From Octopus vulgaris (lineage: Eukaryota), in NCBI GenBank assembly GCA_951406725.2, contig OX597814.1:7688001-7752000 (forward strand): a DNA stretch of 64,000 nt. The letters are read 5' to 3'. Under the pieces are notes generated by a model that did not search any database, was not told the DNA's origin, and saw only the letters and a list, made by a program, of their open reading frames with translations. A program made the translations under genes and the position numbers. Shown piece after piece: positions 9,669-62,169 of this stretch (its first letter is position 1; the number at the start of each line of letters is the position of its first letter).

Positions 9669-9669
9669 A

Positions 9670-19613: not shown

Positions 19614-19699
<86 letters not shown>

Positions 19700-38496: not shown

Positions 38497-39300
38497 AAAA
38501 TGTTGCACCCATTCCAAAATGGAACAAGGGCTGTAAATGAGGATCATTTCTATTTCCTTTGTTTCTTGTAGAATATTGTTTTTTGGTAAATTCCAAGAAT
38601 ATCAACATAAAACAACAAACAACAAATACATCAACCAACCTTCAGAATTTCCGTGTCATTACTTAAAACCATGAATTTAACAACTTTGATCTGGTTTGAA
38701 TTTAGATCTGAGTAGTTTTTCACTGCTTCATACATTGTTCTGGGTAGATTTTCAATGGGGTACCTCAGTACCCCAGCTCCTAATATAGGAAATGCAAGGC
38801 TTCTAGCTTCCATTCTCTCAGCAGTTTCCAGACAAGTGATTATTATTTGAGTCAAGTTTGCCAGAATCTAAAAAAAATAATTGTTTAGTAATTGATAATG
38901 AACATTTTATTAAGTTATTTTTTTATTACAGGAAGAAACCATTAAGTTGTAATAAATATATCCTCCTCTCACAACTCCTCTCACTTCTACCACTTCTAAA
39001 CACAACTGTCATTCCTATCACTCTTTAGTCCTGCAAGGGACAAGGCAACCTCAATCATGATGCTGCTACAATAAATCAGACCCAATCCACCATGTAAAAT
39101 GGTTGTTGAATGAAGAGAGACAATGCAGACCCAAGAGGAGTCTTTAGTGTTGTTGAGGACATGACAACCTCTCTAGTGCTCGTGCCATGACAGAGAAAAA
39201 CTCACCAATACAGACAGTAAAACAGAGAAATATGTTTTAATATAGTCTTATTTATCAGTCACATAACTGTTGTTAGGCCATGAGGCTTTTTTCCTTCTAT
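38490..39300 (+). repeat. Duplicated block around exon C (partner 61358-62169)
   Basis: Intron flanks align directly with 61358-62169. Confidence 0.95.
38640..38867 (-). CDS. Exon C (macrodomain C-terminal half), paralogue of exon C'
   Basis: Same splice sites and length as C'. Translates ILANLTQIIITCLETAERMEARSLAFPILGAGVLRYPIENLPRTMYEAVKNYSDLNSNQIKVVKFMVLSNDTEILK. Confidence 0.88.
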
Positions 39301-39477
39301 TTATATATAAAAGTGTCCTGTTCATCGATATCTTCTGCTTCCTTCCAATGATAACTTGGAAGAACAAATATTAAACAGGATGCTGACATTTGCTTTATGA
39401 TTCTCACACAACATGCATAAGGTTCTCTTCAAACATTAACTGTTTCAATAAATCAATATCATATTATTGATACTTAC

Positions 39478-39705
39478 TAAATGAGAAGAATTTTCATTCC
39501 AGTCAGGTAATGCCAGATGAAATACTTTCTTACATTTGAGGTTGTATCCTTTAGTGATGGCTATTTCAGATGTAGAAATACCTTGAGGATATTTCTGGTT
39601 ACATTCAACTTGTATCTGTGAACCAGCAGCATTGAGAATATATTTGGAGATAGAACCATTGTTAAGCTGAAGGTCTCCAGCAGTGCTATTAACAATGACA
39701 TCAAC
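39478..39705 (-). CDS. Exon B (macrodomain N-terminal half); absent from the ORF track
   Basis: tttttatag|GTTGAT...CATTTA|gtaagt, 228 nt, phase 0/0. Translates VDVIVNSTAGDLQLNNGSISKYILNAAGSQIQVECNQKYPQGISTSEIAITKGYNLKCKKVFHLALPDWNENSSHL, with the classic DVIVNS / AAG..Q.EC / T.GY.L.CK.V.H...P.W pattern. Confidence 0.9.
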
Positions 39706-39986
39706 CTATAAAAATAATTAATGGTAAACAGCTAAGGAACATTCCATGGAGAGAAGAGAGATACATTGTTGCAGTTGATATTGTTGTTAAGAAAGGCTCT
39801 ACAGAATGGCTGTAGTAAGTTTGAGGTTGTTAAAGTTAGCAAAAGATATACTCAAGATATCAGATGTGAAGGAAATAAAATGTTTGAGTTTGATTGAGAA
39901 AATGTTTTAATTAACTGTAATGATTCCTTATTTGGAAATGAAATAACAATTAAATATAAATAAGTTACATGAATCTATTTACTCAC

Positions 39987-40123
39987 AGATGCATTAGAAA
40001 TTGAACCAATCATTAGTTGTATTTTGATGCAAGCTTTTTCTCCAGGTGCCACATTAGTTTTGGGTGTCATAGGGGCTGCTTTCTCTTGTGGATGAAGAGG
40101 GGATGGGTTTGATGTTGTGGTTT
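39987..40123 (-). CDS. Exon A (low-complexity linker plus start of macrodomain)
   Basis: ttattttcag|AAACC...GCATCT|gtgagt, 137 nt, phase 1/0. Translates (E)TTTSNPSPLHPQEKAAPMTPKTNVAPGEKACIKIQLMIGSISNAS. Confidence 0.82.
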
Positions 40124-41289
40124 CTGAAAATAAACAAATATCAGTGTGTGTGTGTGTGTGTGTATAGATACACACACACACATATACATACCAACACCAT
40201 TATTACCCACCATCATGATATAACGTCCATATTCCATCCAGGCTCAAGTGGAACAAAATGATACACAAACACACATCTGTTATAGCAAAAGTGAGGTCCT
40301 AAATGCATTGTGCTTATTCATGCCCATGCTGGGCCCTACACCCACATCTGTCCCCGTGAAGCATCCCCTTCACCACATCTCATCTTCCTAACACCCATCC
40401 CTCCATTACTCTTCTAACTATGGTCCTACTTTGCTGCTGTAACCATTTGACAGCAGAATCTTCACATATTCATCACCACCACCACCAACACCCTTTCGCT
40501 AATACCAGTCGCCTCACTTGCATCATCATCTCTGTCCATACACCCTTCCATCGATCATCCCTTTCTGTCCCTTCCCTAATCTTTCCCACCTACCCCTCTT
40601 AGCTACACCTTACTCTGCCAGGTCTCCTGTTGAACACTTCTCCTATCTGCAATCATTCTCAACACCCTCTCACAGCCATTGCTAAAACTCCCTTACCAAT
40701 TTTCTGGCCCCACTCACTACAGCAACCCCCATGTATCTCTGACTCCCATCTCTTTCACAGTTCATCATCTTTGCTTTCCCTCTGCTGTCAGATCCTGGTC
40801 ATCATCTCCCTTCCTCCTCATCTATCAACAGATTGATGGTTCTGCTGCTCTCCACCCTTCCTATGCTGCTTCTTGTCACCTCCTCCTTTCCGAGCCCCGT
40901 CAGTCTCTCGACTCCACCTCAAACCATTGTTCCTCACTCTCTACAACCACCTCAAGCCCCATCTCTAACCTCTGCCCTTCTCATCTCACACTCTGATGCC
41001 ATTACCCTCCCATTCCTTCTTTCCTCATCCACAGTCTCCCTTATACTCCCCTTCTTGTAACTTGGGACTATGCTCTGGCACCCAATTACCACCATCTTTC
41101 TCCCTTCCAGATACTGTCATGCACCCTTGCATAAATATAAGGACGCCATGAGCCTCGTCTATATCCAGACAACTGTGCTTGACCCTCTGTCAAACTTTAG
41201 GCTTTCTACCCCAGGCATCAAGCCAACTCCCTCCCCCCAGTTCCATCGGGGGGGGGGGTTATCCTTTTCGATTCTTTGCTTTGTCTTGC

Positions 41290-42339: not shown

Positions 42340-44510
42340 GCAGTTGACATGATTCCTTTGGGCACAGAGCCATGGCCTCTCAAGACCAACAGATGCCTAC
42401 TATATAAATAAAACTTGAAGTGCATACAACTACTATGGTAAAAATAGCTCTTGTATATGGATAATCTCAATCGGTATGCTGCAAATGATAAACAGCTGGA
42501 AACATTACTACAGACAGTGCATAGATTTACCAAAGAAATAAACATGAAATTCAGCTTAGAAAATGTGCTAAAGCAACTTTGAAAAGATAGAAATTAGTTA
42601 AAAGTTAACAATATCACACTAGATAAAGCAAATGAAATAAGAGAATTAGACCAAAGCCAAACTTACAAATACTTAGGAATCAATGAACTAGATAAGACAC
42701 AACACACACAAATGAAAGAGAAGATAAAGAAAGAATACTATAGACGAGTTAGATCAATACTAAAAACAGAGCTCAATGCTAAAAACAAGATAATAGGTAT
42801 TAACACTTAACCGTCCTAGTTATAAGTTACAGCTACAAGATTCTTCATAGGTTCATAAATGAACTAATCAAAATAATGACAAAATTTAGGATGCACCACT
42901 CAAAATCTGACATTGAAAGGTTATGCAAACAGCGTATAGAAGGTAGTAGATGTCTTATGCAGCTAGAAAACTATTTTTAAATATCCACCTTAGAAATATC
43001 TAACTCAGAACCAAGGAGAGATGGTACAAATATCCACAAAACATAATTTTAAAAAACTGTTTTCTGTCTTTAAGGAAGCTGGAAAATAGAAGAAAGAGAT
43101 CATAAAATCTAACAACTATGAAGAAAAAGGACAAACAAGAACATCTGTAACATATCTGAAACCTAAGCTAAAACTGGAACAACAAAATACCACGATAAAA
43201 CGATGGCAAGAAAAGCCCATACATAGAAAATATTGGGTTAAGCTAAACAGAAAAGCAAAATCCCAGCAGTGGCTGAAAAGAACAGGACTCAAAGCAGAGA
43301 TTGAAGGATTTTTAATTGCAGCACAAGACCAAAGCCTCCCCAGCAGAAATCATCAAAATGCACATAATGAAAAAGAGTAATTGCAGAATATGTGGTGATG
43401 GAGAGGAAACAATAAATCATATTATCTCTGGCTGCCCAGTCCTGGCTAAGAAGGAATATATTCACAGACACAATACAGTTGGGACCTATTGGGTTATCCG
43501 GAAAGTTTGTGTCGATTTCTAAAGGAAAGAAAACGGTCAATAAATACTTGCCATGACATTTTTAATCAACCAAATGTGAACCATTTTGTTGCACAATGCG
43601 TCTCCATCCTTCCTTTAACTTGAAAATACCCTTTTCCCAGAATTGACGTGGTTTCATGGCAAAGAATTCATCAAGGTATCTTTTTACGTCATCCAAGGAT
43701 TTGAAATCTTTGCCATTACGACTAGTCTACAGAGACCTGAATAAGTGGAAATCCAAAAGAGCAATATCTGGTAAATATGAAGGGTGGGGTAACACATCCC
43801 AGCCAAGATGCAGCAATTTTTGTCTGGTTCCCAAAGCATCAAGTGCCGAAAATGAACTTTCTTATCTTCCATTTTAAAGGGTTACAGAATTAACACAGGT
43901 TATATGAACATAAACCTTCTTCCACGAAAAGATAGCTTAAACTGTGCTTTAAACGGAGGTGTAGTCCAATCCTATTTTATGGATTCAGCCATGTTCTAAA
44001 ATAAGTCTAAAGGTAAGCTACTATAATTCGGCACAAACTTTCTGGACAACCCAATACATACATTGGTATAGGCACACACCAGAAAAGGTCAAAGAAAACG
44101 AAAAAGTAACCATACTCTGGGATATGCCAATACACACAGAAAGAGAAATTTAGACCAATAGGCTGGATATAGTTGTCAGAGATCATCAAGTAAGAAAAAT
44201 GCTTTCTAATTGATGTAATAATAGATGACAAATAGAGGTAACCAGAATGTGGAATCTAAAAACAGAAATAATTCCTATCATAGTAGGTGCATTAGGCATG
44301 ATAAAAAAATATTCAGACCAATACATAACAAAAACACCAGGATTTACAAACACATATAACATACAGAAAATTGCACTACTAGGCACTGCACACATCCTAC
44401 TTACTATAATTTCAATACAGTAACCATCAGAGCATTTCAACAAAACACAACACATACCCAAGGCACATAGAGCTGCACTTTGTAGTGAAGTGAAAGCATG
44501 CAACTACAGA
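42340..44510 (+). mobile_element. Dong/R4-like LINE interrupted by the mariner derivative
   Basis: LLYMDNL, YKYLG, CRICGDGEETINHIISGC, HRHN.VG, then the REL/3' end after 44056. Confidence 0.8.
43487..44056 (-). mobile_element. Internally deleted mariner element (duplicate copy)
   Basis: As 8254-8813. It interrupts the Dong-like element at 42340-44510. Confidence 0.85.
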
Positions 44511-45522
44511 ATAATAACAACAACAACAACAACAACAACAATAATAATGATGCTAATAACAGCAGGACCCACAAAATGCAAACCTCTGCAAAGGCAAACC
44601 CCCCCACCCGCCCCAATGATTAACCAGAGATGATTTTTAAACTGAGAATATTTGAAATAAACTCAATTGCTCTCACAAACGAGAAACACTAAAAATGAAC
44701 CCAACCGCTTCCAAAATGAAGTTAAAAAACAGGTAAACTATTTGAGAATCCTTGTACCATGTCGACACCAAAATCTAATCAGCTCATGCCAAGCATTGCT
44801 GAAAGTTTCATACGAATCCATCCAGCAGTTCTTTAGATATCTTGTCCATAGACAAACAAACGAACAGGACTGAAAACAATATCTCTGACTTCGCTAAGGC
44901 AGAGGTAATAACAATTGGCACAACGTGAAAACGGAAGACAACATGACAATGTGACAAGAATGATACATTGGAAGCTCTGTGGAAATCACGGCTTACAAAG
45001 AGCGAAGACATGGTATGAGAAAACCCCAGAAGCAATCATTGAGAATGAGAAGGGCAAAATCCTGTGGGATGTAACGATCCAGTGTGATTATCTGACCAGA
45101 CATAGGAAATTGCTGTGGTGAATAAAAATGAAAGAACATGTGTGATTATCAACACAACAGGCCCCGGTGACAACAGGATCAATATGGAAGAAGAGAAAAT
45201 AAGCAACTATGACTATTTAAAGTGGGAAATACGAAGGTTGTAGTCAATGAAGAGCGTAGACATGGTACCAATAGTAACTGGTGCACCTGGAAGAATCAGT
45301 ATTCAACTACCAGCATGGCTGAAAAAGATTGGTGCAAGTGTGAAGGTAGAACACCTATAAAAATCAGCATTGCTTGGCACTGCAAGAATTCCTCGCAGAG
45401 TTATTGAAGCATGACCAGTAAACAAGTGTTACCTTAGTCTGCTGGCTGTGGACAACCGATGCTTTCCATCATACCCAGCAAAATAAGCTGTGAGTTTTCA
45501 TCAAATAAAATTAATGATAATA

Positions 45523-47546
45523 ATAATTCTTTCTTTATTGGCCACCAGGGTCAAACACAAAACATACAGGTCGATACACAGATGAGGAACAGTGGGGCTA
45601 AATGTGTAAACAGCAAAACAAAACACAATTAACAAGGAGATTAAAACAACAATGTACTTCCCCAATAGAGGGCGATGGGGTCCTTCCACGAAGCGGTGAC
45701 CAAAGGAACCTCACACACTTTTGGCCCCCTAACATCAAAGGCACCTCATGTAGGCACCCCTCTCCTCCTCATTCCATCTGGTCTACAGGCACATACTTAG
45801 AGTAGGCCCGTTTACATGGGCCATTCTTGCCACATTCACCCATGATTCAACAAACTTACTGGGTGACAGTTCTTACCTCTCCAGCATCACTTTCCTTTTC
45901 AGACGGAACTTGAAAAGAACAATGAGGCCATGGCCAAAGAGGAAGGTACCCATCTTCAACTTTTTCAATCACGTCCACCACGCAACCTCCTTCACCATAG
46001 CTACCTGACAGAGAAAAACGGCCTGTCCTTCCCAGTCAAAAGAAGGAGGCACAGTAATTTTCATAATGGGTTCGGATGATAGCCAAATCCATCTTATATG
46101 CGACAATAACTGTTCGACAAAGCTCTACAAGTCAGCAATGTGTGGACACAGTACGAGAGCATATAGAACGGTTTCATCGCACTTGCATGCATCTCAGACA
46201 AGCCTGTCTGGTTGCACAGATGCTTATTGTAGACCAGCAGAGCCCTCCAGTAGCACTGCCAGGCCAGGGATTTTAGGAAGTTATCCATAGACCCCAGCCC
46301 AAAAGTCCACTGGAAGAGACCAGCCAGTCGATCATTCTCAATGCTAAGATCCTCACCAAGTATGTCATCACTCTTGCCCTCCACTAATCCCCTACAGAAC
46401 TCTAAAGTGGAACTTCCACCTAGACTATCGCCCTACCAAGGAGATGAGTTGCAGAAAAACATGTCCACCCTGATAAGATCTGGATGACCCAATGCTGTTT
46501 GTGCATGCCCACACTGGGGCATATGGGTAATCAAGTCTGATCTTGTCAGCCAGTTGGAAACAAATGAACAGGATTGCAAGGCTTGTGAACACCACACTTT
46601 CCGATCTGCTAGCCCCATCCAATACACATGGACATCCAAGATGGTATTCCTAAGAGAGGAATGTCCCTAGAAAGACCTCCAAATGTTTGAAGAAATTCGG
46701 CTACCCCGATCCTGTCGGAGCATACACAACGACCAGTCTGAAAGCACTGCCTTCATTATTGTTCCCTTCCAGGACCACCAACTTACCTTCCGGGTCCAAG
46801 AAGACCAACTGTATCTTAGGATGCAAGACTGTTCTGAACAACGCCCACCCACTATTCCTGGTTGACTAAGAGATGAAAAGATCACAAAAACATCATCAAA
46901 ATTGGGTGCTAAGGTGCACGGGTTTGCGATCCTGGTCTCACTGATGGCTATTACATTTAAATTCAGCCACCTCAGGTCATTGAGCAAGTGACCTTGCTTC
47001 CAGGATGACCTCACCACATACATTAATGCAACCCACTCTTAGTGCTGCCATATTGGCCTAAAAGAAAGGAAAGAAAGATGAGGAGTGTTACTTAACCTCC
47101 TGGTGCTGTTGGAGATCACGGGGTCCCACCTCTATTTCTTTGTTGGTCTGCGTTGGGAATACTTATAGAATCCTTGTATTGGCATTTACTTGAGAGATTC
47201 CTACATCGTCTAGAAGGGCATCCCTAATTGTTTGGAAAGTGTCCAAATCCATCCTCCCCATCATTAAGTCTTTAGGCACATGGCATGTGTTAGTCCAAGA
47301 AGATTCTCCCCCCCCTCGTACCTTTTCCAATGAGACCCCTTTGTGATAAGATGGCCATCAGTTCTTTGCTGGCCCTCCTTACTAACACAGAGTGAGCTGC
47401 CTGTGTCACTGCTTTTTGCTGTTCTTGTTGCGTTGGTGGTGTAAGTTTGCTTTTGGGAATTTTTTCCTGTCTGCAGTGGAGTTCTTGGTGCTTGTGGTGC
47501 TTTAGTTGATGATTGTGATGCTGCAGGAGTTGTCTGGCTGTCTGCG

Positions 47547-47582
<36 letters not shown>

Positions 47583-49140
47583 TTCCTTTGCTATCTTGTT
47601 TTGGTGCAGGGTAAGATGTCTTGCCTCTGTGACTTCTTTTCGGTTGTTTTTCTAGTTTACTCTGATCCCTGTCCTCATCACCTTTCATTGAGGTAGAACC
47701 AGTGTCTGTTGCAACCTCCTCCGCTCTCCTGTGCAAGTGAATTCGTGTTTGTATGTGTATCTTTTTTCTGCATGCTTGTTTGTGAGGGGTGGGGTTGTTG
47801 AGGTTGGTTGCAAGGTGTTGGTTTTCATGGTTGACCTCTCCGACGGTTTTCCTGCTGGTGCTCTCGTTACACCTGCCACCGCCACCAACACCATTGTTGC
47901 TATTTTTGCTGCTTTTCCTGTTGTTGTCTTTTGTTTTCCCAGCCTTAGTCAACGGAGGTCCCCACATCCCTGTAACGTTTTGATGAGGGCAGCATGCTTG
48001 TAGGTGTGTTGCATCACCACAAGCAAAGCAATGAGTCATACTGCCCTCAGTGATCAAATGTAATTTCGTCCCCTCTTGGAGGCAGACATGGTCTCGGATG
48101 CTCTCCAAGACTTGTGGTTTTATTTGGATTAGCAATTCCAAATCCATCCCAATCCTGTCTTCTCTTTGCATCCGTTGAACTTTAAGGAGGAAGGTGTTGC
48201 TGCTCTCCACAATCACACATCTCAACCACCTCCAGATGTTGATACCTGGTGTTACTGTGGGGATTCAAACTTTTATTGTTTGTGGTGCCCATGTAGGGCA
48301 GGCACATTATAAGCTGGTCAGTTTTACTGGGTCCCCATGAATACTTCATGGCCAGCTCTTCTGTTTTAAAAAGGACTGAGATGGTGCCAAAACTCTGGTC
48401 CCTTCTTGATTGATCTCAGTACCATCTCCACTTGAAGAAGGTGGGAGGGTTGTTCTGCACTCCGAGTCAGTACTGAGACACACTTATACTTCACTGTTCC
48501 CTTCTCAGTTTCTACCTCTACTTTGGCTGGGATTGCAAGGTTAGCCCAGGTTCTTTCTCTTTTGATGAGCTTGTGCATCAGGGCTAACATCTGTTTTTTT
48601 GTTGGCGGTGTCTATCTCATAGTACTTTTGTTGGCATTTTGCAGCTGCTGCAAAGGTCCTTGTTCTGCTCTCACAGTTGATGGTGGTGATGGAATCGTTA
48701 ATGCTGTTACTGCTATTGTTACTCCTAAATACAAACATCTCTCTGTTGCTCGTGTTGGCGTTGGTATTGGTTGGGTTCTCGTTGATGTTTTTGTTGTTGT
48801 TTTTCTGTTATGCTTCTCTGCTCTGTGTTGTTGGAGTTGTTAATTTCTGTGTTGATATCAGCTATCATTTCATTTCCCACATTATTCCTGTTTGGGGAGT
48901 TGGCAGTTACATTTTCATTATCTATTCGACTATCGAGTGAATGTGTGTTCTCCATTGTGTCGCTTTCCTCTGTTGTGATAATTAAGCACAAGAACCAAAT
49001 ATTATTTAATTCTTTTTTCTGGAGACAAATGCTATTGCCTTGGGTTCCCTTCTCAACAATAATATCAACCAAGACAATAGTTTTCATAAAAATACCTGTC
49101 AAGCTTTCACCAATGTCCTAGCCTTTCAACTGAAAGTCTA
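45523..49140 (-). mobile_element. Tx1/L1-like LINE (duplicate copy)
   Basis: As 10140-13810. Confidence 0.65.
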
Positions 49141-49530
49141 ATAATAATAATAACAACATCAACAACAATCGTTGTTTACTAAAGGCACAAGGCCTGAAAC
49201 TTAGTGGGAGGAGATTGTCAGTTACACTGACCCCAGTGTATAACTGGTACTTATTTCATCAACCCCGAAAGGATGAAAGAAGAAGGAGGAGGAGGAGGAG
49301 GAGGAGAAGCAGGAGGAGGAGGAGGGGGAGAAGAAGAACAAGAAGAACAAGAACAAGAACAAGAAGAAGAACAAGAAGGAGGAGGAGAGGAAGGAAGGAG
49401 GAGGAGGAGCAGGAGGAGCAGAAAGAGAAGAAGAAGAAGAAGAAGAAGAAGAAGAAGAAGAAGAAGAAGAAGAAGAAGAGACATATTTTTTCCTAATTAA
49501 AATTTAAGATAAAAAAAGGAAAATATTTAC

Positions 49531-49582
49531 CTGATGATGCATCTAAACCCCTCCTGTTTCCTTGGAAATATTCTTTAAATTC
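49531..49582 (-). CDS. Micro-exon D' (macrodomain last helix plus linker)
   Basis: ttctaacag|GAATTT...TCATCAG|gtaaat, 52 nt, phase 0/1. Translates EFKEYFQGNRRGLDASS+G and continues DTEIVK of exon C'. The phase-1 end matches exon A. Confidence 0.75.
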
Positions 49583-50268
49583 CTGTTAGAAGTAATCAAA
49601 TAATTTATCATCACTCAATGAAAAACATAATTTCATAATTAATTTCTGTTAATTTCAATGCAATGCTTTTATTCATTGCTTCTACCGTGAATGTTGTTTT
49701 AAATTTACATTTCTATTCATTGTATTATAAAATAAACTCCTACAATGGACAGGGTTTTGAATATTCTGTAGTTCGGTGAGGAATTGTTACTTAAAGAATA
49801 AGAAAATATTATTCATGGAATTGGAATTGCTTTCGAGACTCCATGTTATGCCCAAACATCAGCTTAATTCCTCATTGTTTTCAAAACTGATTAAAACCAA
49901 AAGAAGAACATTTCTGTAGAAACAGACTGGCTTTGAGTAAATTCCAGTGAATTACTGGTATGTCAACAGTGCTTTACTTCAATGCTATATATACTGTCCT
50001 ACAGAGTATATCTGCAGATGTGTACCCAACACTGGAGAAAGAAGTAAGGAACTGGTCCAGCCAAACAATCTTTTTCTGTCCCCAACACACATTGTATACA
50101 GAAAGTGTATATATGACGCTCAGTTTATATACACCCGTCTTGCTTACACCCATCTATGCATAGGCAATATATTTTATAGAGACATGATATTTACATTAGT
50201 CTCTCTCTGTGTCTGTTTCTCTCTCTCTCTCTCTCTCTCTCCCTCTTTCTCTCTCTCTCTCTCATATA

Positions 50269-51151
50269 TACAGGGTGTTTCAAAAAATTTTATATCATTT
50301 TGCAATCTAATAACTTTGCCAGTTCTTGTTCATATGACTTCACATTTTAACAGCATGTTTTAACAGCATGTTTAACGTTTGATGTGTTTAACATTTCAGA
50401 TATAGAAATGGCATTCACTGGAAGAGAAAAGGTGTTTTGTGTGTTGGAGTATTCTCGAACACAGTCGAACAAAACTGTGCAGCATGCATGGGTGAGAGAA
50501 TTCTCTAAAAAGTCACCAACGGCAATGTGTATTTCGACATGGCACAAACATTGCAAAGAGGAAGGCTGTCTGTGCAGGGCAAAAGCATCTGGATGACCAC
50601 TAACATTGGAAGAGATGGTCAAGCGGGATCACCAGAAACTCTTGCAAAGCCCCAAGAAGTCCATAAGAAGAATAAGTCTGGAAACCCAGATTCCTCCAAC
50701 GACAGTTTGGCGCGTCTTGAGGAAACGCTCGCTAATGAAACCCTACAAGCTGCAGCTCATTCAGACCATAACAGCAGATGAAAAGCGAAAGCACAAATAT
50801 GGGGCTATGTGAAGGGCCAGGTCTATGTCCCCCTCTCTTCCTGCAAACCTAGAGGAACTTTAACAGAGAATCACTACCGTACTGCAGACTGTTATCCCAA
50901 AAATGCTGCAGCATGACTGCCAGGAGTTGGACTACCGACTTGACATGTGCCAAGTCTCAGACGTTGCGCATTTTGAACATTTGTGAAATTGTTCATGGAA
51001 TCCACATTCCTTTGAATTTCTCATTCAAATATGGAGGAATAAATCTTATATTGCTCAAACGTTATGCCTGTTTGGTTTCATTTGCTTTGACTACGCAGTT
51101 TCTGCGATATTTACATCTCAAATGATATCAAATCTTTTGAAACACCCAGTA
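50269..51151 (+). mobile_element. Tc1/mariner-like element (duplicate copy)
   Basis: As 14926-15795. Confidence 0.8.
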
Positions 51152-54100
51152 TATGCAGGGAACATGGGTGTTAAACAATAATGCTGACGATGATGATAAT
51201 GACTATATATATATATATATACATCATCATCGTTGTCATCATTAAAAATCCATTTTCCATGCTGGCATGGGTTGAGTGGTTTGACTAGAGACTGGTCAGG
51301 TAGAAGACTACACCACGTTACTGTGTCTTATTTGGCAGGCTTTTTATGGTTGGATGCCTTTCCTAACATCAACGACTCCACAGAGTAGACTCAGTGCATT
51401 TTCCATGGCACCAACACATGCAAGGTCAGTTTTGGTAGGGATTTTAGAGCTGGAGTCCCTTCCAAATGCCAACCACTTCACAGTGTGAATTAGAGGCTTT
51501 TTAAGTGGCACCGTCACTGGCAGAGTTACCGAGTAACTTGCAAGACAAGGAACGTGTGAGAGGGGATACAGCATTGGAGGTGATTTTGTAGCAGATGAAG
51601 GAAGGGTAGAAAGTGAGAGAGAGAGAGAGAGAGACAGAAACAAGTGTGTTGGTGTAAAAGAGATGCATGGTTACTTAGTCAGAGGGAGAGAGAGAGAGAG
51701 AGAGAAGGAGTGATCAAAATTAAGGTCAGCAATGCATGTGTTGCTGTAGAGGAGATACGGGGTCAAGCAGTCTGCAGGATAGAGCAGGAGGAAGATAATG
51801 AATGCAAGGGAGCAGGAGAGAGATGCCAGCGCATGCTCACAAGGAAAAGGGATCAGAATATAAAGGGGATAGTAGAGAAAGGGAGAGATAAGTGATAGCA
51901 AAGTAGCAAGGTTTACCCTCAAAACATGGGGTCAGAATATACATGGTAGGGTATTGCCAAGGTGTGCGAGTAGGGAGTACAGATTTCACATGAATGCAAG
52001 GAGTGTCGGGGTGGGGGAGTACTGTGACTGGTGAAACCTGGGTATACAGAGGGGGTGAGGGTGAACAGGATAGCAAAGACACAGTGAGGACAGGATTGGG
52101 TAGTAAGAGATAAGCGTAGCGCATGAGAAAGAGGAAATTTAGAGGCAGAGAAGAGATGTAGTTTGGTCTGTTGGGGTAGAGTGAGGAAAAAGGTTTCTTG
52201 GTCTCACAGTGCTTCTGGAACTCAGTTTTGTTGAAGTGGGCGGGTCTTCCTAGAACCTCATATTGCCAGACATACCAGTCCATTGTCAACTCTTGCATGA
52301 GGTCTAACATCCTGAGATTGGTCATCACCACTTCATCCCATGTCTTCCTGGATCTCCCTCTTCCACAGGTACCCTCCACTTTCAGTGACCAGCACTTCTT
52401 TATACAGCTGTCCTCATTCATACGCATCATGTGTCCAAACCAGCACAGTCTTCTTTTTTGCATGCTACATCTGGTTCTTCTTATTCCCAACTTTTCTCTC
52501 AGCACATTTGCACTTTGTTGTATGTGCACACTGATGCTGCGCATCCAACAGGACATACTGCCTTCATTCCTCTCTAGTCTACACATGTGTTCTGCATGCA
52601 GAGCCCGTGTCTCACTACCATGGAGTATAGCCACTTGTACAGAAGCATCATACAATTTACTTTTCACTGGGAGACAGAATCCTTTTGTTGGCAACAGAGG
52701 TAATAGTTCTCTGAACTTCCTCCATCCTATTCTTATTCTAGAAACAATACTTTAAGAGCATCCTTCATCATTGCTAATTTGGTCACCTAGGTAACAGAAA
52801 CTATCTATAACCTCAAGAGAGCCTCCTGGGCATTTGAGAGAATCTAAGTCCTGTGTGCTCTTAGTGTTTATTGTTCCTGCATATCTGCCACACACAAAGA
52901 TGACTTTATCTGTTAATCTATCTGTGGTTCCAATGCACCTCTTATGTGTCCATAGTTTACATTGGGTGCAACAATTGGAATTTCTTCCAACACTTTTCCT
53001 ACATATTGAGTCGCACCATTTACCTGACGGAAGGAAAATTTATCTTCTTTCTCACTAAGAACCACTTTTGACTTAGCTAGGCCCTTTGATTCCAAGTTGT
53101 TTGGTTTCCATACCTGGAATTTCTTCTCCAATTCTGCTAAAGATTCTGCAATAAGAGCAAGGTCATCAGTATATAGCAGTTCTCAATCCTGTGATGATAA
53201 ATCATGTACCACTCTGACCTTCCAAAATAGACAACCAAACACCCATTATTTATCTGAGGAAAAAAAAAAGACAGGCGATGACTGGCAGAAACGTTAGCAC
53301 ACTGGGTGAAATGCTTAGCGGTATTTTGTCTGCCGTTACATTCTGAGTTCAAATTCTGCCGAGGTCAACTTTGCTTTTCATCCTTTCAGGGTTGATAAAT
53401 TAAGTACCAGTTATGCACTTGGGTTGATGTAATCAACTTAATCCCTTTGTCTGTCCTTGATTGTCCCTTCTACGTTAGCCCTTTGTGGGCAATAAAGAAA
53501 TATAGCAGTTCCCACTGGCACCCAGTCTTGAATTCCTCTGTGATGGCCTGAAGGACTATAATGAATAAGAGTGGGCTGAGAACTGAGCCCTGGTGAACCC
53601 CTTCCTGAACGCAAAATTCATCTCTGTATTATTCATAGCTGACTCTCACCTTCCTGACTGTACATGGTTTGGACAGCTCTAACAAGCCACTCCTCTGCTC
53701 CTAACTTCCTTACAGACTACCATGTAACAGACCAAGGAACTTTGTTGAAAGCTTTCTCCAGGCCGATGGCCTACTTTTGGCCAACTACTTTCCTTGCAGC
53801 TGTCTCACTAGGAAGATGGCTTCTGTGGTACTCTTTTCAGCTACAAAACCAAACTGCATCTCATCTAGTTTAATTCTATTTCTAATCACATGAAATATAA
53901 CCCTCTCAGTACCTTTCATGACTTGGTCTAGCAGTTTAATATCTCTGTAGTTTTTTCTATCTAAGGCATCACCTATAACCCTTATAGCTGCTACCTATAA
54001 CGCTACTACACCAGTCGTTGGAGATGGTGCCCCCGCTGAATAACCTGATTAACTATACAGGTGACTAAGCTGTATCATATGCCACCACAGATTTTAATCA

Positions 54101-54621
54101 TCTCGACAGTGATTCCCGATGGACCACCCAGGGGCTTTCCCTGTCTTCCTCTCCTTAATTGCCTTATCCATTATGCTGCTATCAACTGTGATGGCTGGTC
54201 CCTCAACTGGCTCAATATTTGGTAAACCCCTATTCACCCATTCATTTCCCACATTTACTAACCCTTTCATACTGACCCTTCCATGCGTCTTCTTCTCAGA
54301 GTCGCTGAGTGCAAGCATACCATTATCCATTCGCACACATTTCTCACCCACCACATCTCTTTGCAACTCTGAACACCTCACGCCTCTCAACCTCACCTTC
54401 TATAACATTTGATGATCTCTTACCTTCTGCTACATTTTTCGCAATGTAAACCTGACGCCCAGCTGCTCTTTTGGCTACCTGATGTAATTCTCTGCTTCCA
54501 CCCCTTTCCCGGGCCGGTCATTTGTTTTTATCGTACTGTCCAGTCCCTTGCTCCACCACCATGTCAACTGTGATACAGCTGAGACTTTGCACTGGCCATG
54601 CATGCACACACACACATAGAA

Positions 54622-54653
<32 letters not shown>

Positions 54654-55020
54654 ATAATAATAATAATAATAATAATAATATTCAGAAGAAGAAGAAGAAG
54701 AAGAAGAAGAAGAAGAAGAAGAAGAAGAAGAAGAATTGGAAGAAGAAGAAGAAGAAGAAGAAGAAGAAGAAGAAGAAGAAGAAGAAGAAGAAGAAGAAGA
54801 AGAAGAAGAAGAATTGGAAGAAGAAGAAGAAGAAGAAGAAGAAGAAGAAGAAGAAGAAGAAGAAGAAGAAGAAGAAGAAGAATCCTTGGATGGGATTTAT
54901 AATTATTTTAATGCACTGGAATATGCGTTTCTGCAAATCATGTGTTTCTTAAGATCATAATTGCTATTCCTGGAATGATTCCAATGCAGCCATACTACAA
55001 TGCTTCAAACAAACTACAAC

Positions 55021-55076
<56 letters not shown>

Positions 55077-58000
55077 GGGGAGAGAGAGGGAGAGAGGGAG
55101 AGGGAGGGAGACATAGACATGCATGAGTAGACAAACAAAATGTGTTGAGCATATATATAAATATATATTCATGTTTGATGGCCATCCACTTGTGATCGAG
55201 AAAGACCATTACTGACCTTCAAAAACATTGTGCACTCAAGGATTAACTTATATTTTGCATTTGCAGCCCCAGTGGTGGCTAATGAGCCCTACTCTTGACA
55301 ATCATACACAACTGCAAACATTACAGATCAAGTTTCCCTATGCACTACACCAGCAGTGTACTTTCGAACAGCTTCTTAAGTTCTTCTAGCAGAATGTGTG
55401 CCCCCTCAAAAGTGTCGACCCCCACCTCCTTAACCTGCTTCTTCCATCTGTAGTGCGACAGGCATTGTTTTCCCAGTCAGTCTCTTGTATATCACAGGAC
55501 TTGACACAGTCCTTAAATCACAGCCTTGGTTTCTGCCAGGGCCTCTTTCCATTCACAAGTTCTCCATATAGCATCTGCTTAGGGATCCTGCTAAACTTCA
55601 CCTTAATAAAGTATCCAGTCCATCGTAACAGGTGCTTGTGTAACATTGCCTCAATACTCAAGAAATCAGCTGTCCTCAGGACCAGTGTGTCTGGAGTTTT
55701 TAAGGTCCAGACAACATTCAGAAAGTGTTTGAGATACTGCTGCAGTAGTGATTTTACACTGTTATAGTGGGCAAGTGCTAGATTTCGCTGCACAGCTGAA
55801 AGTCCTATGTGCAGCAATGCATTGTGGGCATGGTGCTTTACAACTAATAGTTGCTGAACCTTAGCATCATTTTCATGAAACCAGTGTCTGTGTCTGGCAG
55901 TTGCATGTCCCAGTGTTTCAGCAGCACATTGAAGAATATGGTCTCAAAAAGCTTCCCATGCTGCAGTATTTTCGATGCTGGACAAGCGAGTCTGAAGCTC
56001 TTTCCTGAACACAGCATCATATATATTGTGGACATTCAGATGCCAAGGAATGCTGAATGGCCCTCTTCTCTCTTTCACTCGAATCATCATCCGGGACTTT
56101 GCTTGCACCAGACTGAGGTCTGTCCAGCATACCGATCCCTTAAAGGACTTGACATTACAAATGTCATAGATGTCAGGCTTGTGGATGATGACATAATCCA
56201 GCAAGTGCCAAAACTTAGACCTTGGATGCATCCACATTTTTGTGTCATCACTTTTGTGCTTGTGATGTCCATGTTCATTGCAGAGATCCAGCAACACGAG
56301 ACCATTGCTATTCATTTTCCCTACTACAAAATGTCCTAGAGAGTTCCAACCCTAGCATTGAAATCTCCCAATAGAATGACTTTATCAGAATTGGGGATTT
56401 TCCTAAGTATGGCTCCCAGCTGTGTAGAAAGAGGTAGCTTCGTCTTCACCATAACTAGTCAAGGTAAGTGCTTAGGTACTTATTAGAGTAGCAAACCACC
56501 CACCTTTCAGGTGCAATCTTAGAGTCATTCGACATTCATTTATAGGAACAGGAAGCTCCTCCAACTTCTTCAGGATATCAGATCGAACTGCCAAGCCAAC
56601 ACCAGCCTCTCTGTGCTTCCCCATCTACTTCCCCTTCCCCAAAAAGGTGTTTCCACTTCCTAATTCCTCAAGCTGACCATCACCTTCTATATGAGTCTCT
56701 GAAAGTGCAGCTATATCAATGGTATAACAGTTCAGCTCATGAAAAACAAGTGCAGAGCATCTTTTTAGGCCTGCAATCACTCTTGTTATCCAACAGAGTG
56801 CGCACATTCCAACATGAAATGTTCAAGTTCCATCCAGATTTTGTAAATAAGAGTTTCTTTGTTTTTCGAGTGCAGGGTGGACATCCATCAATCGTGCTAA
56901 ACTGACCAGATATAGAAAGACAGACAATTTTTGGTTCACCTTTTCTAGAACCTCCCTGGCCTCCGGGTCAGTGGTGCCCTCTCCAAATGGAGCTGCACAG
57001 ACACCCATGCAGCAAACAAATCCTACTGCTATCTTGGGCAAACAAGGAGATGACTTTATATCTAGCATGGTCTGCCTATGTGCAGGTCGCTGACTACATG
57101 CTCCCAAACTGTAAGGTCTGCATGCTTCACCACTTTCTCATTGCTGCAGGACTTCCGAGAAAGAAATTAAATACAAACATACTAAAAATATATAAATATA
57201 TATACTAAAATGAAAGATACATATATAATAGAAATGTGATTATGTGTATATATATATGTAATTTAGAGAAAAACTCCTATTAAACTATTATTATTATATA
57301 TGTATATATATATATATATATACATAACAAAGTGGAGTTGTAAGGTACCACATGAGTGGAATTATATATGAAAGAAGGTTTGAAAATGCAATTTTAAAAG
57401 ATGTTTATTCACTTGACCAGTTTCACTTTTTTAGAAAAAGATTGTCAAAAGTAAAATGTAAAAGCTTTGTTGTGTTAGGTACTGGTTGTCACAAAATATT
57501 ACAATACATATATACATTCTTTGATAATAATAAGAACATGTTAAAAACAGTTTACAAGGTAAAATCTTGGGAAAATATAAAAATGTTTAACAAGTTCATT
57601 AAAATATTGGGCACAAAAGATTACAATATATATATACATTCTTAAGAAATGTTAAAAACAGTTTACAGAAAGAATTATTAAAAAGTTCAGAGGAATATTG
57701 GTATTGTATCTGTATATATATACACAGAAAATTATAAGTGCAAAAAGGTCATATTTTGGTAGTATATATATTTACACCGAAGGAGATATATTTAGTTTAC
57801 AAAGAATTTGGGATGAACTGACCTGATTCACCATATTATCGTAAAAGACTATTTTCTATTTCAAGAGACAGTGTAGGAAATGTGTTTGGGTGGGGGGAAG
57901 GAAGAGCAATGTGGAATTGACAAGAAGTTTTTGTTTCTCTTACAAGAATAAGTGATTTGGGCGATTGGTCTTTAGAGGTTAGAATGGTGTGAGTGTGTGT

Positions 58001-58259
58001 GGGGGAATTATAACCGTGTTTCATGGTCTGCTACCCCCAACAGCTCCTTTATAGGATCCAGTTAGCTCAAGACATCATCAGGAGGAACCACATCCGGTTT
58101 CGGCCCCTACTCCTCTACCGTTTTGACGTGGCGGCCGCCCCCCCTTCCGGAGGTGTCTTCAGCTCTGGTGTTGGGTGCATGTCTTTTTTCTTCTGTTCCC
58201 TGGCCTCTTCGATGTAGCGTCAGCGAGTGTCAGTCGGTGACTGACTGACTTGTCAAATT

Positions 58260-60492
58260 TCTCCCTTTAAATACCTGCCGCTAGGCTCCAGCAGGCAGCC
58301 CCAGCAAGTTGTCACGTGACACTGTCTCACCTTAACTGACTAGTGAAGGCGCGTAGTTTTAGCCCGCGCTTTTTCTAAACGACCGTCACCTGTCAATCAG
58401 CGAAGCTAATTCAGTGTCAGCCTGTCTCACCTAGTGATGTTATTTTCCTGCCGGTATGTTATGATTTTCAAGCCATTTTTGGTTTTCCCGCTTCAGCCAT
58501 ATATAGAAGCTGGCTTTTTCGACTGCCTCCTGTATTCTCCTTATTAGCTTTCCCAATTCCAAGCTAGAAAATGCAAATCTTCTTTTGAATAGCATTGTCA
58601 TTTTCCTTTCAATGAAGCCCCTAGCCCCCACTGCCAGGTGGTAATACTCGACAGTCCATCCCTGTTCTCTGCATTCTTCGATTAGCTTTTCGTACCTCAT
58701 CTCCTTTCGTTTCTCTGCATTGTCGATGTTCTCTTCCCATGACACTGTCAGTTCTAGCAAAATTCCTATTCTCCATTCTCTGTCCCATAGGACTAAATCT
58801 GGTCTTTTTGTTGTTTTTATTAGTGGAAATACTACTTGTCTTTCCAAGTCCGTGGCCACCTCCCAGTATCCCTTCCATCTTTCGTCCATCTCGTATACTT
58901 TACTTGTAGGCCTGGTTTTATATCCTTTTCCTCCTTCTGGAAGTATACTTTCCTGCGCTTTTCTACTTTTGGGTACTCTCCCCTATTGTATCCCTCGATC
59001 TTCTCCTTGAGTGCTGCACTTATGATGCCGAGGACTTGATTATGACGCCATGTATACTTTTCTAGTGCTAGTCTGCAGTTTGACAGAACATGTCTAAACA
59101 TCGCTTTCTCTCCACATCTACACTCATCAGTTGTTTTTACATTCCACTGGACTAAGTTTGCCAGTGAGGGTAGAACGTCGAAGGTAGACTTGATCAGGAA
59201 GGATGTTCTTGCTTGTTCGACCAAGCCCAAAGTTCCTGCAATGAGATTCTGCGACTGATCACATATTCCTCCCATCTCAGGCACTGTCCCTGTTGACTGC
59301 ATTGCACCAAATGTACATTTCACCTTTCTTCTTCCTCCTTTCTCACTTCATGTACCACTGCCTCTTTCATCTCTTTTACACTGCTCTTGCAAAATGGCCT
59401 GAAATTTTGCGACCCTAGGCTGGTTCTAGCTTCTTGCGTCGCTCCGACTATATCTGCGTGCTTTAGTTTTCCGATTGCCCTGTTTACTGCCTCTTCCGCC
59501 TTCCATTTCCTCCCTGTTCGTACCTTTGGAGGGTTTTCCCGGATGCTCTGATCTTTTGAATACCTTAGCATCAATACTGTCCTTGCCTTTCCTGCCTTAT
59601 ATTCTTCGGCGATTGATGTTATTGGTAGTTGCAGCACAGGTTTTCCATATAGTGCAGTTGTATTCAGTGGTTTTGGCAGACCAAGCCATTTTCTGATAAA
59701 CACACAGCATCTTTGTTCCATCCTTCCTACTCTACTCGTGGCTATTTCGTACATCTGCAATGGCCACATTATTCTTGGGTACAGCCCAAATTGCAGTATC
59801 CAAAATTTGAATTTCCCGGCAGCGTTGTTCTGTCAACTGCCTTTAATCCTTGTTCTACTAACTCGTGTGTTTCTTTCCCTTGCTTCTTATCATTTAATAA
59901 ATCTCTATACCATCTGCCGAGACTCTTTACTGGTGGTTCTTTCACCGTTGGTATGTCTTCACTTCCTATCCTGAATTTCACTTCTTTTTACCTTCCTTTC
60001 ACAAAAGCCACGCTTCGAGACTTTTTGGCTTTGAATTTCATCTTTGCCCATCCTATCAGTTCGTCCAACCGCTCTAACGTTCCCTCTGCTGCTTCTCTAC
60101 TTTCCAATAATACAGTTACGTCGTCCATAAAAGCCCTTAATGGTGTCTTTGTAACAGCTTTCTCGCAGTTTGTAGATCTGAGTAACATTTCCATGACTAG
60201 CACAAGTAAGATGACTGATATCGTGCATCCGGCTGCAATGCCTATTTCAAGCCGTTGCCACTCCGTTGTGAACTTTCCTGCTGTAAATCTCATCCTCAGG
60301 TTGTCGTAGTACGACATGAGCATTCGTTGAACACCTTTCGGAATCCAAAAGATGTCCATCGCTGTTTTTATTATTGCGTGCGGAACAGATCTAGCCAAAT
60401 AATATACAGGTTTTCTTCAGTTGTTTTGCACAGGTGAAGGCTTCCCAGATGGCAAATGCGTGTTCTATGCACCCAGGAATTCCGGGGATTCC
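58260..60492 (-). mobile_element. HERO/R2-group non-LTR retrotransposon (RT plus restriction-like endonuclease), 5'-truncated
   Basis: GIPGCIEH, GIAAGCTIS, AFMDDVT, KSLGRW, C.CG...HVLSNC, WRHNQVL, RPDLVLW..ELTV.WEEN..A..RK..RY. Confidence 0.82.
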
Positions 60493-61046
60493 TGTTTGTG
60501 TGTGAGGGCCGTTTTTGATTGGTCCCAGGGTTTATTGTGGTGTAAGTAGATGTGTCTGTGTGTGTTTAATATTTGGTAGGATGGTGTGTGCATATGTGTG
60601 CACGTGTGCATATGTGTGTGTGTGTGTATGTGTGTGGTTAGTGTTTGTTAGTGTGTTGTGTGTGCACTAGTGTGTGTATGTGTTTGTTCATATGTGTGCA
60701 TCTGTGGTTGCATGTGTATTCTTGTGTATTTTGTGTTGGTGGGGATGTTATATGCGTGTATGGGAGTGTGTGTGTAATATGAGTGTGTGTGTGTGATCAA
60801 CAGTGTGTGTTGTTGTCTTGGTGTTGTGTGTGTGTATGTGCGTGATTGGTATTTGTCATGGTGCTGTGTGTGCGCATGTGTGTGTATATGTGCATCTGTA
60901 TGGAGGTCAGAATGGTGTGAATGTGTTTGTCTGTGTGTGTGTGTATATACATGTGTTTGTGTGTGAGGGCCGTTTTTGATTGGTCCCAGGGTTTATTGTG
61001 GTGTAAGTAAAAGTGTCTGTGTGTGTTTAATATTTGGTAGGATGGT
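60493..61046. repeat. ~90-bp direct repeat pair enclosing a (GT)-rich tract
   Basis: tgtttgtgtgtgagggccgtttttgattggtcccaggg...tttggtaggatggt at ~60493 and ~60954. Confidence 0.85.
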
Positions 61047-61357
61047 CATGCTTGACCTTCAGTCTGATGAATCACAACTGACTCAGGGTCAAACAACAAC
61101 AACAACAACAACAACAAGCAAAACATTCTTAGCTTCAAATGTTACAATGGAATATTTCAGAAGCAAGAATTTGGTGATGGGAAATGGTATAATGAAAGGA
61201 TAAAGCACAACAAGATATAATGAACAGCATTAAAGGTAGCATGAAGAAAGGTACCCAGGACATGCTGTGAAGTGGTTGGCATTAGGAATGGCATCCAGCC
61301 ATAGAAACCATGCCAAAGCAGACACTGGGGTTCAATAAACCCTTGTGGCTCATTGGA

Positions 61358-62169
61358 GCCAGTCAAAATGTTGCACCCATTCCAAAATGGAACAAGGGCT
61401 GTAAATGAGGATCATTTCTATTTCCTTTGTTTCTTGTAGAATATTGTTTTTTGGTAAATTCCAAGAATATCAACATAAAACAACAAACAACAAAAACATC
61501 AACCAACCTTTACTATTTCTGTGTCTTGAGAATAAACCACAAAGTAAACATCTTTGATCTGGCTTGAATTTAGATCTGAGTAGTTTTTCACTGCTTCATA
61601 CATAATTCCAGGTAGTTTTTCAATGGGGTACCTCAATGTCCCAGCCCCTAATATAGGAAATGCCAGGTTTCTTGCTTCTATTCTCTCAGCCTTTTCCAGA
61701 CAAGTGGTTATTATTTGAGTCAAGTTTGCCAGAATCTAAAAAAAATAATTGTTTAGCAATTGATAATGAACATTTTTATTAAATTATTTTCTTATTACAG
61801 GAAGAAACCTTTAAGTTGTAATAAATATATCCTCCTCTCACAACTCCTCTCACTCCTACCACTTCTAAACACAACTGTCATTCTTATCACTCTTTAGTCC
61901 TGCAAGGGACAAGGCAACCTCAATCATGATGCTGCTACAATAAAACAGACCCCATCCACCGTGTAAAATGGTTGGTGAATGAAGAGAGACAATGCAGACC
62001 CAAGAGGAGTCTTTAGTGTTGTTGAGGACATGACAACCTCTCTAGTGCTCGTGCCATGACAGAGAAAAACTCACCAATACAGAGAGTAAAACACAGAAAT
62101 ATGTTTTAATATAGTCTTATTTATCAGTCATATAACTGTTGTTAGGCCATGAGGCTTTTTTCCTTCTAT
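61358..62169 (+). repeat. Duplicated block around exon C' (partner 38490-39300)
   Basis: Alignment ends on the right at a Helitron-like 5' end at 62169. Confidence 0.95.
61508..61735 (-). CDS. Exon C' of a multi-macrodomain (PARP9/14/15-like) gene: C-terminal half of a macrodomain
   Basis: Acceptor ttttttttag, donor aag|gttggt, 228 nt, phase 0/0. Translates ILANLTQIITTCLEKAERIEARNLAFPILGAGTLRYPIEKLPGIMYEAVKNYSDLNSSQIKDVYFVVYSQDTEIVK, with the macrodomain-type AFPxxGxGxxxYP loop. Confidence 0.88.

Follow-up and report, generated by a model that had tools for sequence, protein, structure and literature searches.

Diverged exons and near-identical introns in a probably shuffled family of PARP14-like macrodomain cassettes of Octopus vulgaris

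In the genome of Octopus vulgaris, we find at least 51 copies of a 1.6-kb, three-exon cassette whose product is a single PARP14-macrodomain-2-like domain, and across this family the exons are considerably more diverged than the introns that separate them. The copies share short variants in mosaic combinations, and their genealogies are linked across donor splice sites. We consider it probable that short ectopic gene conversion at the DNA level among all copies, together with selection on the exons, yields this pattern of high exon and low intron divergence. The mechanism is a known one, and a shuffled octopus macro-PARP family of some 50 copies was not found in the literature searched.

The cassette family and its two copies in the window

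The window analysed here, a stretch of 64,000 nucleotides, contains one complete cassette and part of another, both on the minus strand. Repeat 2 comprises exon A (39987..40123, 137 nt; a linker and the first strand of the macrodomain), exon B (39478..39705, 76 codons; loop 1) and exon C (38640..38867, 76 codons; loop 2), separated by intron A-B (39706..39986, 281 nt) and intron B-C (38868..39477, 610 nt) and followed by the first 150 nt of intron C-D (38490..38639), which align over at least 90% of their length in 15 copies. Repeat 1 is represented by exon C' (61508..61735, 76 codons), the C-terminal half of its macrodomain, and its exons A' and B' lie just beyond the window end (B' at 64464-64691 and A' ending at ~64973, in extended coordinates). 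Exon C' belongs to an 828-nt block (61358..62184) in common with 38490-39313, consisting of 430 nt of intron, the exon and 150 nt of downstream intron; the block, as first delimited, ends at 62184 because an insertion of ~2.1 kb, starting with a repeat (62167..62411) that is a 97% inverted match to 28005-28249, interrupts intron B'-C'. The 52-nt micro-exons D (14190..14241) and D' (49531..49582), likewise on the minus strand, are indeed identical, but they are sited in a separate duplicated block of 13.7 kb (8217..21918 and its copy at 43450..57309, with about 1% substitutions) rather than in the 828-nt one. A linker exon, E, lies on the minus strand at 5053..5109, and the exons of the PARP domain follow it more than 23 kb past the window start.

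The contrast between exons C and C' that was reported in the preliminary description is borne out by a recount. Between the two exons, both bounded by AG and GT, we count 32 differences in 228 nt and 15 in 76 amino acids; among the codon changes are 8 single-base synonymous ones, a serine switch between AGT and TCT, and 7 further two-base changes. Codons 62–76 hold 15 of the 32 differences, the last of which falls on the fourth-last base of the exon. Divergence of the flanking introns is low, as had been stated, with 1 difference in 150 nt on the donor side and, over 429 nt on the acceptor side, 13 substitutions and one 1-nt indel, or 15 differences in about 580 nt (exon against flanks, p = 2e-9, Fisher). 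The excess of exon synonymous over intron divergence likewise holds on a formal Nei-Gojobori count (pS 10.5/54.75 = 0.19; pN 21.5/173.25 = 0.12), the synonymous sites alone differing from the flanks at p = 8e-6 (Fisher). The remaining parts of the two repeats differ at 34/131 (exon A) and 32/228 (exon B) positions, and their introns at 9/281 (A-B) and 16/601 (B-C). An origin of C and C' as a recent duplicate with later exon divergence is, however, contradicted, as they are never each other's closest copy in any exon half (mutual ranks 6–47 among 35–50 copies); they are not a special pair but two of at least 51 cassette copies.

Searches, whose counts are lower bounds, returned exons B and C in 51 copies each; four of the clusters lie on C1 and a fifth on C29. 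Mean differences across the family reach 10.5–17.9% in exons (A, 17.9% in 40 copies; B, 10.5% in 46; C, 12.5% in 50) and 1.8–4.0% in introns (A-B, 4.0% in 41 copies with a core at 1.6%; B-C, 1.8% in its 5' part in 38 copies and 3.3% in its 3' part in 42), with intron cores at about 2%. Exon divergence exceeds intron divergence in 806 of 808 copy pairs, with a median ratio of 3.7, and after de-duplication, exons exceed intron cores in all 465 pairs (12.6% vs 2.3%). Intron diversity declines with distance from the exon, from 0.064 through 0.054 and 0.040 to 0.017–0.029 (Spearman -0.51, p = 5e-4, 43 blocks), a slope that hitchhiking predicts; within exons, synonymous diversity showed no fall with distance from variable codons (35 codons, p = 0.37). 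By a crude per-codon count, the omega-like ratio is 0.79 overall and in no region significantly above 1; it is 1.0 at 32 loop positions vs 0.73 elsewhere, and 0.59 in loop 2 alone. Replacement steps are more numerous in the loop set (p = 0.002), which was picked after the data were seen.

Shared alleles, probable gene conversion and the alternatives

The exon differences are largely drawn from a common pool: 79 of the 98 between repeats 1 and 2 are alleles present in other copies. Short motifs recur among paralogues in incompatible combinations, and both C and C' can be split into many short runs, each matching different copies. Among the 39 copies left after 12 had been dropped, r2 is 0.25 at 1–3 nt, 0.10 at 11–25 nt and 0.06 thereafter, so that linkage weakens within about 25 nt, and compatibility between neighbouring sites exceeds that of shuffled sites in each of the three exons (p <= 0.001). 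Nine young pairs, picked by distal flanks that are 0.65% apart, already show 3.4% divergence in their exons and 1.6% in the cassette introns; of the differences counted in 11 young pairs, 192 of 234 in exons and 120 of 171 in introns correspond to alleles that exist in other copies.

According to our favoured explanation, conversion patches of roughly 50–200 bp would fall on introns and exons alike. Intron cores would offer no counterforce and would collapse to about 2%, while events erasing the less common amino-acid variants of the exons would be selected against, such that old variants would persist and recombine anew; synonymous sites and exon-near intron bases would hitchhike with the amino-acid variants kept. 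Selection appears to keep many amino-acid variants in circulation. A toy simulation combining DNA conversion over 100–200 bp with diversity-keeping selection reproduces the observed values: five DNA-only settings with selection, each run as one seed, gave 0.11–0.15 at synonymous sites, 0.15–0.19 at nonsynonymous sites, 0.03–0.06 in exon-near intron and 0.03 in the core. The contrast between exon and intron disappears without selection. Simulated linkage at 1–3 nt (0.5–0.6) is above the observed 0.25; a first set of simulations, in which an excess of codons was under selection (selected-site diversity 0.70), was repeated with weaker settings. Intron-homogenising conversion with selection on old exon variants had been offered earlier as one of three possible mechanisms for the C pair; it is supported here, and for the whole family.

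The main rival, which we judge unlikely, places functional elements in the cassette introns under purifying selection, with relaxed exons drifting in a birth-and-death family that undergoes some recombination. It gains from Tajima's D, which is negative everywhere and strongly so in the intron cores (-1.9 to -2.2, exons -1.2 to -1.6), from an omega-like ratio that is not above 1, and from intron cores that are as alike across 200 Mb, from one cluster to another, as they are inside a cluster, an outcome not expected from conversion alone. Yet the contigs of organism D show, at full depth, intron letters of their own, of which 8 were checked and 5 occur in no copy of the window's own genome, and the intron pieces of that organism stand 5–8% from the window copy (9/172 and 10–11/145, own-family means 1.9 and 4.9; few contig pieces, with no genome-wide baseline), its exon pieces being no further from the window copy than own paralogues are (18 vs 17.0 and 22 vs 26.4 differences; again few contig pieces). 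The direction is the one expected if introns, but not exons, cluster by species. Within the octopus family, other sequence stands in place of 470–525 nt of intron B-C in 5 copies (L020, L022, L026, L034 and L035) whose exons B and C remain alignable, 140 nt are missing in 4 more, and C' has accepted the 2.1-kb insertion; the diversity slope away from exons, moreover, fits hitchhiking. Rfam gave no match inside introns A-B and B-C, its 11 sub-threshold matches all lying at 40128-40216, upstream of exon A, and the intron folding z-scores are -1.3 and -0.6; neither a hosted RNA gene nor a strong fold was found in the introns. Templating by cDNA, possibly from A-to-I-edited transcripts, would rewrite exons only, and it could account for the sharp C/C' contrast at the donor site and for the sense-strand exon bias of A>G (84/215) over T>C (42/157, p = 0.015). 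We nevertheless hold it to be very improbable: there is no A>G excess at synonymous third positions (17/62 vs 16/67, p = 0.69), where an RNA-editing signature is accordingly absent, and genealogies correlate across 3/3 donor boundaries (Mantel r 0.24–0.44) vs 0/2 spliced junctions, in a test of low power, since both acceptor boundaries and 2 of 4 within-exon controls showed no linkage either. Sites on either side of a spliced junction are linked no more than background (r2 0.052 vs 0.049 far and 0.082 within exons, distances not exactly matched), and 12 of 65 candidate tracts span a splice site while many are entirely intronic, although this list is not a formal GENECONV test and some tracts may be shared ancestry. 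A cDNA-only simulation gives introns at 0.46 and exon synonymous sites at 0.01–0.08, the reverse of what is observed, and the earlier proposal of cDNA templating is therefore not upheld; a 30% cDNA share changes the simulation little, and a minor share may operate alongside DNA conversion.

A raised mutation rate confined to exon sites, synonymous ones included, would fit the diversity of 0.14 at four-fold sites in conserved codons vs about 0.02 in intron cores, as well as the greater difference of young pairs in exons than in distal flanks. Singletons, however, are alike in the two classes, at 5/35 conserved four-fold sites (0.14; a small sample) and 61/472 intron-core sites (0.13); the excess consists of shared variants (0.54 vs 0.06 per site), and most exon differences of the young pairs already exist in other copies, leaving such hypermutation with hardly any likelihood. 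The capture of one exon from a more distant macrodomain repeat with equally diverged introns is slightly less credible still. Exon C does have 6 letters unique among the copies, of which 4 fall in the final 15 codons, a more diverged copy exists (L060, 61% aa), and the copy number is a lower bound, but no pair of the 808 has introns more than 6.2% apart, the runs of C and C' match different copies and not one, the contrast recurs in exons A and B, and the best 150 representatives fall at 53–78% or at <=40%, with none between. No single distant donor was found among the 51 copies; from the patchwork conversion with a distant repeat that had been envisaged, the patchwork exchange stands and the more distant donor does not. 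Least probable of all is an assembly or polishing artefact with collapsed or chimeric copies. Some pairs (L041/L042 and L012/L013) are only 0–0.5% apart and could be uncollapsed haplotypes, and all contigs of run X4 counted at 38658-38664 carry letters other than the window's, without the private letters of C. Even so, the frames are open, the splice sites are clean, and the pattern survives removal of the 12 near-duplicate or broken copies. An artefact in C/C' is unlikely because the O. sinensis protein P0008 has both repeats and the private 3' residues of C, matching C at 74/76 amino acids with its 3' cluster included and C' at 68/76. Relative to P0008, exons C and B of repeat 2 differ at 2/76 and 16/76 amino acids, and C' and B' of repeat 1 at 8 and 13, which would suggest shuffling more than locking. 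For DNA-level conversion with selection on the exons, no exon-restricted machinery is required, contrary to the exon-restricted diversification first suggested.

A predicted PARP14-like reader and its relation to known systems

The cassette is predicted to encode a PARP14-MD2-like ADP-ribose reader. Its best sequence match is human PARP14 macrodomain 2 (PDB 3Q71, E 4e-22; fold match with a TM-score of 0.93), the non-catalytic MD2 as opposed to the hydrolase-type macrodomain 1. A glycine is invariant across the family at the position that we take to align with G1044 of human PARP14, and positions in loops 1 and 2 are among the residues that vary most, pocket contacts having been assigned from motifs and published loop definitions. 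P0018 and P0008 combine macro and PARP domains, both above Pfam cut-offs; on what is presumably the catalytic triad numbering, their PARP domain keeps HGT and has GVSF at the place where GVYF stands in 14 of the 16 proteins compared.

In its macro plus PARP architecture and its best sequence and fold match, the family resembles human PARP14, although in mammals a single PARP14 gene carries three macrodomains that diverged long ago, whereas octopus proteins amplify one MD2-like unit in up to 5–6 repeats. Primate macro-PARPs evolve rapidly (PMC4038475, PMC10221186, PMC10499325), and in the portion consulted of one of these reports the sites under selection in mammalian PARP14 are placed on surfaces where ADP-ribose binding should not be affected, and the term "gene conversion" does not occur. 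The consulted part of a PARP14 review mentions a cluster of four copies in lancelet and more than one copy in sponges, with no occurrence of octopus or mollusc; our literature search found no conversion in invertebrate macro-PARPs and no octopus PARP14 expansion, and the latter might be listed in supplementary gene-family tables of octopus-genome papers. An immune role for the octopus family is suggested by analogy with the mammalian macro-PARPs.

Exon divergence exceeding intron divergence, synonymous sites included, is also a feature of snake PLA2 and cone-snail toxin genes, where it is often explained by accelerated exon mutation; those are secreted toxins, and the singleton test in octopus does not support such acceleration. 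The sections consulted of PMC12674619 and PMC7116101 do not mention intron homogenisation, nor do those of the latter show toxin-gene introns to be better conserved than exons. Closer parallels are the primate red/green opsins and colobine RNase1, for which the "peak of divergence" model, as given in the part of the source consulted, describes introns homogenised by conversion and exons diverged around selected codons (PMC3924837). Those cases comprise two or three copies with fixed differences, unlike the octopus family, with its at least 51 copies and with pooled variants recombined over tens of bases, in three exons, among clusters that lie 200 Mb from one another and on a second chromosome. 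Conversion is likewise described there as creating haplotype diversity in MHC, self-incompatibility and plant R-gene clusters (PMC3924837). The octopus family shares with MHC and R-gene clusters its many paralogues, short motifs in new combinations and some broken copies, but its module is predicted to be an intracellular ADP-ribose-binding fold. The sea-urchin SpTransformer genes, which the consulted text links to immunity, are likewise an invertebrate family, with about 50 members in clusters and mosaic coding regions, yet they vary by present or absent elements in one exon of unrelated proteins, whereas the octopus cassettes vary by point-variant motifs in a conserved fold with homogenised introns (PMC8634487).

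A tentative reading, less likely true than not in our estimate, is that the cassettes form a germline library, comparable to the MHC, of intracellular ADP-ribose readers, in which the near-identical introns would serve as universal homology arms and micro-conversion would recombine pocket-loop variants into multi-reader PARPs able to tell ADP-ribosylated targets apart or to escape pathogen antagonists. The clusters of this putative library are distal and lie on two chromosomes.

More generally, the apparent paradox of synonymous divergence above intron divergence is replaced by a standard process that can be tested, and the family offers an unusually large and clean case of it, with about 50 copies of a unit of three exons and two short introns, and a measurable hitchhiking slope. 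It also suggests that an animal which, to our knowledge, lacks adaptive immunity has an expanded macro-PARP family that is shuffled fast. If the variable loops change binding, ADP-ribose reading would join the short list of diversified recognition systems in invertebrates.

Gene Organization and Domain Identity

Homologues of the window gene in Octopus vulgaris and O. sinensis carry the name PARP14-like protein. On the minus strand, repeat 1 (exons A', B', C' and D') precedes repeat 2 (A, B, C and D), linker exon E and the PARP exons, with A' and B' just beyond the window edge and the PARP exons outside it too, past the window start. The gene is divided between the stored proteins P0022 and P0018, and both repeats are united in O. 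sinensis P0008; repeats 1 and 2 probably share one transcript. Exon C is skipped in one repeat of some predicted isoforms (P0002, P0006, P0027), leaving half macrodomains. Open frames resembling LINE/reverse-transcriptase remnants, as judged by eye, fill the long C-D introns (16524-18701, 22369-24813, 34081-35160, 36944-38496 and 51840-54016).

One macrodomain is encoded by the end of exon A plus B and C, and its structure model (pLDDT 96.7) most closely matches human PARP14 macrodomain 2 (MD2) with ADP-ribose (TM-score 0.93; sequence E 4e-22). Since MD2 is described in PMC10499325 as being without hydrolase activity, the octopus domain is predicted to be an ADP-ribose reader. The PARP domain of P0018 and P0008 reads GVSF, against GVYF in 14 of 16 family proteins compared, and the window gene may be catalytically impaired. 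These two proteins are identical over their final 89 aa and differ at 17 of the 103 aa before them; motifs near HGT in the PARP domain also appear mosaic among stored proteins P0001-P0034, and shuffling may extend beyond the macrodomain into this domain.

Exon Divergence Within a Multicopy Family

The divergence counts of the preliminary description were all confirmed: exons C (38640-38867) and C' (61508-61735) differ at 32/228 nt and 15/76 aa, while the donor-side intron differs at 1/150 nt and the acceptor-side intron by 13 substitutions and one indel across ~430 nt, within a common block of 828 nt. Formal counts gave pS 0.19 and pN 0.12, and the excess of exon over intron divergence persisted when synonymous sites only were compared with the flanks (p = 8e-6). 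P0008 agrees with exon C at 74/76 aa, the 3' cluster included, which argues against a polishing artefact. Micro-exons D and D' are indeed identical, because they sit in a separate 13.7-kb duplication (8217-21918 and 43450-57309) with ~1% substitutions; the residues after repeats 1 and 2 differ in P0008 (KFDE vs EFKE), and the identity of D and D' likely reflects a long, recent exchange.

Exons B and C each have at least 51 genome matches. The copies lie on the 226-Mb contig C1 (nine at 5 Mb, 20 at 7-9 Mb, 12 at 207 Mb and seven at 216 Mb), with three more on contig C29; the clusters (C1 5.3-9.4, 206.6-207.1 and 215.8-216.4 Mb; C29 31.8 Mb) are each 3-19 Mb from a contig end. Near-identical copies are common to different clusters (L007/L008, L016/L017, L030/L044), and the copies L041/L042 and L012/L013 (C1 7.56-7.59 vs 8.53-8.56 Mb), 0-0.5% different, are either the product of a very recent segmental duplication or haplotypes that were not collapsed. 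Apparently broken copies, which could act as conversion donors, include L011 (1-nt deletion in exon C), L012 and L013 (23-nt deletion in exon A), L034 (stop in exon A) and L046 (truncated cassette).

The sequence of all 51 exon-C loci was retrieved, and most copies could be aligned over a 1.6-kb cassette that starts with exon A and ends shortly after exon C. Pairwise differences averaged 17.9% in exon A, 10.5% in B and 12.5% in C, compared with 4.0%, 1.8% and 3.3% in the parts of the introns; exons differed more than introns in 806 of the 808 pairs, and intron difference never rose above 6.2%. Among these pairs, C/C' ranks at the 98.5th percentile in exon difference and at the 26th in intron difference; C and C' are not each other's closest relative in any exon half and are only mid-rank in the two internal introns. 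Their introns are thus alike because those of the whole family are alike.

Probable Exchange Among Copies and Its Template

Most exon differences between repeats 1 and 2 (79/98; 25/32 in exon C) are alleles present in other copies, and multi-base motifs occur in numerous combinations. Among 39 copies, with 12 near-duplicate or broken ones dropped, within-exon r2 fell from 0.25 to 0.10 inside 25 nt, 59-73% of site pairs showed all four gametes, and in each of the three exons compatibility was higher for nearby sites than for shuffled ones. Nine young pairs, picked by distal flank similarity (0.65% apart), had already reached a difference of 3.4% in their exons and of 1.6% in the cassette introns. 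Across 11 young pairs, 192/234 exon and 120/171 intron differences were alleles known from other copies, and 65 candidate tracts had a median visible span of 50 nt, 12 of them spanning a splice site; this is an informal tract list, and shared ancestry may explain some entries. Exons and introns therefore seem to take up foreign patches with similar ease, a pattern pointing to selection that maintains diversity and not to locked copies.

Intron diversity declines from 0.064 beside exons to ~0.02 past 100 nt. Genealogies of 70-nt windows correlated across 3/3 donor sites, 0/2 acceptor sites and 0/2 spliced junctions, in a test of modest power (2/4 within-exon controls were flat too). The cDNA-templated conversion suggested earlier is disfavored by these unlinked spliced junctions, at that modest power, and by a simulation in which cDNA-only conversion reversed the exon/intron contrast. 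An exon A>G excess on the sense strand (p = 0.015) vanished at synonymous sites (p = 0.69). Singleton densities are alike at conserved four-fold sites (0.14) and in intron cores (0.13), and the former hold nine times as many shared variants per site, so the exon excess is old variation, not a raised mutation rate.

Proposed Selection, Intron Constraint and Precedent

A toy simulation gave 40 copies the actual geometry, DNA tracts of 100-200 bp and an advantage for rare alleles at 20-30% of codons. Over five settings, it yielded diversities of 0.11-0.15 (synonymous; observed 0.09-0.18), 0.15-0.19 (nonsynonymous; observed 0.11-0.18), 0.03-0.06 (exon-near intron; observed ~0.06) and 0.03 (core; observed 0.02-0.03). 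Removing selection abolished the contrast. In this model, conversion plus selection is sufficient, not unique.

Constraint on the introns would be the main alternative, and it fits intron cores that have the minimum Tajima's D and are without cluster structure. Recent growth with copying between clusters fits the same two observations, and cross-cluster young pairs do occur (L007/L008, L030/L044). Against constraint, intron B-C is mostly replaced in five copies, and a search of the introns returned no RNA family or unusual fold. Moreover, comparison organism D, represented by read-derived contig pieces, carries intron letters at full depth, five of eight checked being missing from every copy in the window's genome; its intron pieces are 5-8% off the window copy and its exon pieces no farther than that copy's paralogues in its own genome (few pieces, no genome-wide baseline). 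As to selection, the omega-like count did not demonstrate it, being 0.79 overall and significantly above 1 in no region, although replacement steps per site (0.70) reach 3.7 times the intron-core rate (0.19). Short DNA conversion, with putative selection keeping exon variants, remains the best reading.

Variability peaks at domain residues 25 and 30 (loop 1), 123 (loop 2), 6, 47 and 82, with loops as defined in PMC10221186, and the core glycines are invariant across copies. A 32-residue loop set, picked after the data were seen, had more replacement steps than the remainder (p = 0.002); loop 2 by itself was not enriched for them. What varies may be specificity at the pocket rim. For primate macro-PARPs, PMC4038475 considers the surfaces under selection to have no effect on ADP-ribose binding.

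No description of this octopus family was found in the literature searched (incomplete coverage). According to PMC3924837, primate opsins and RNase1 show the same exon/intron pattern as the octopus family, and conversion generates haplotype diversity in MHC and R genes. The octopus feature is real and is probably explained by a known process.
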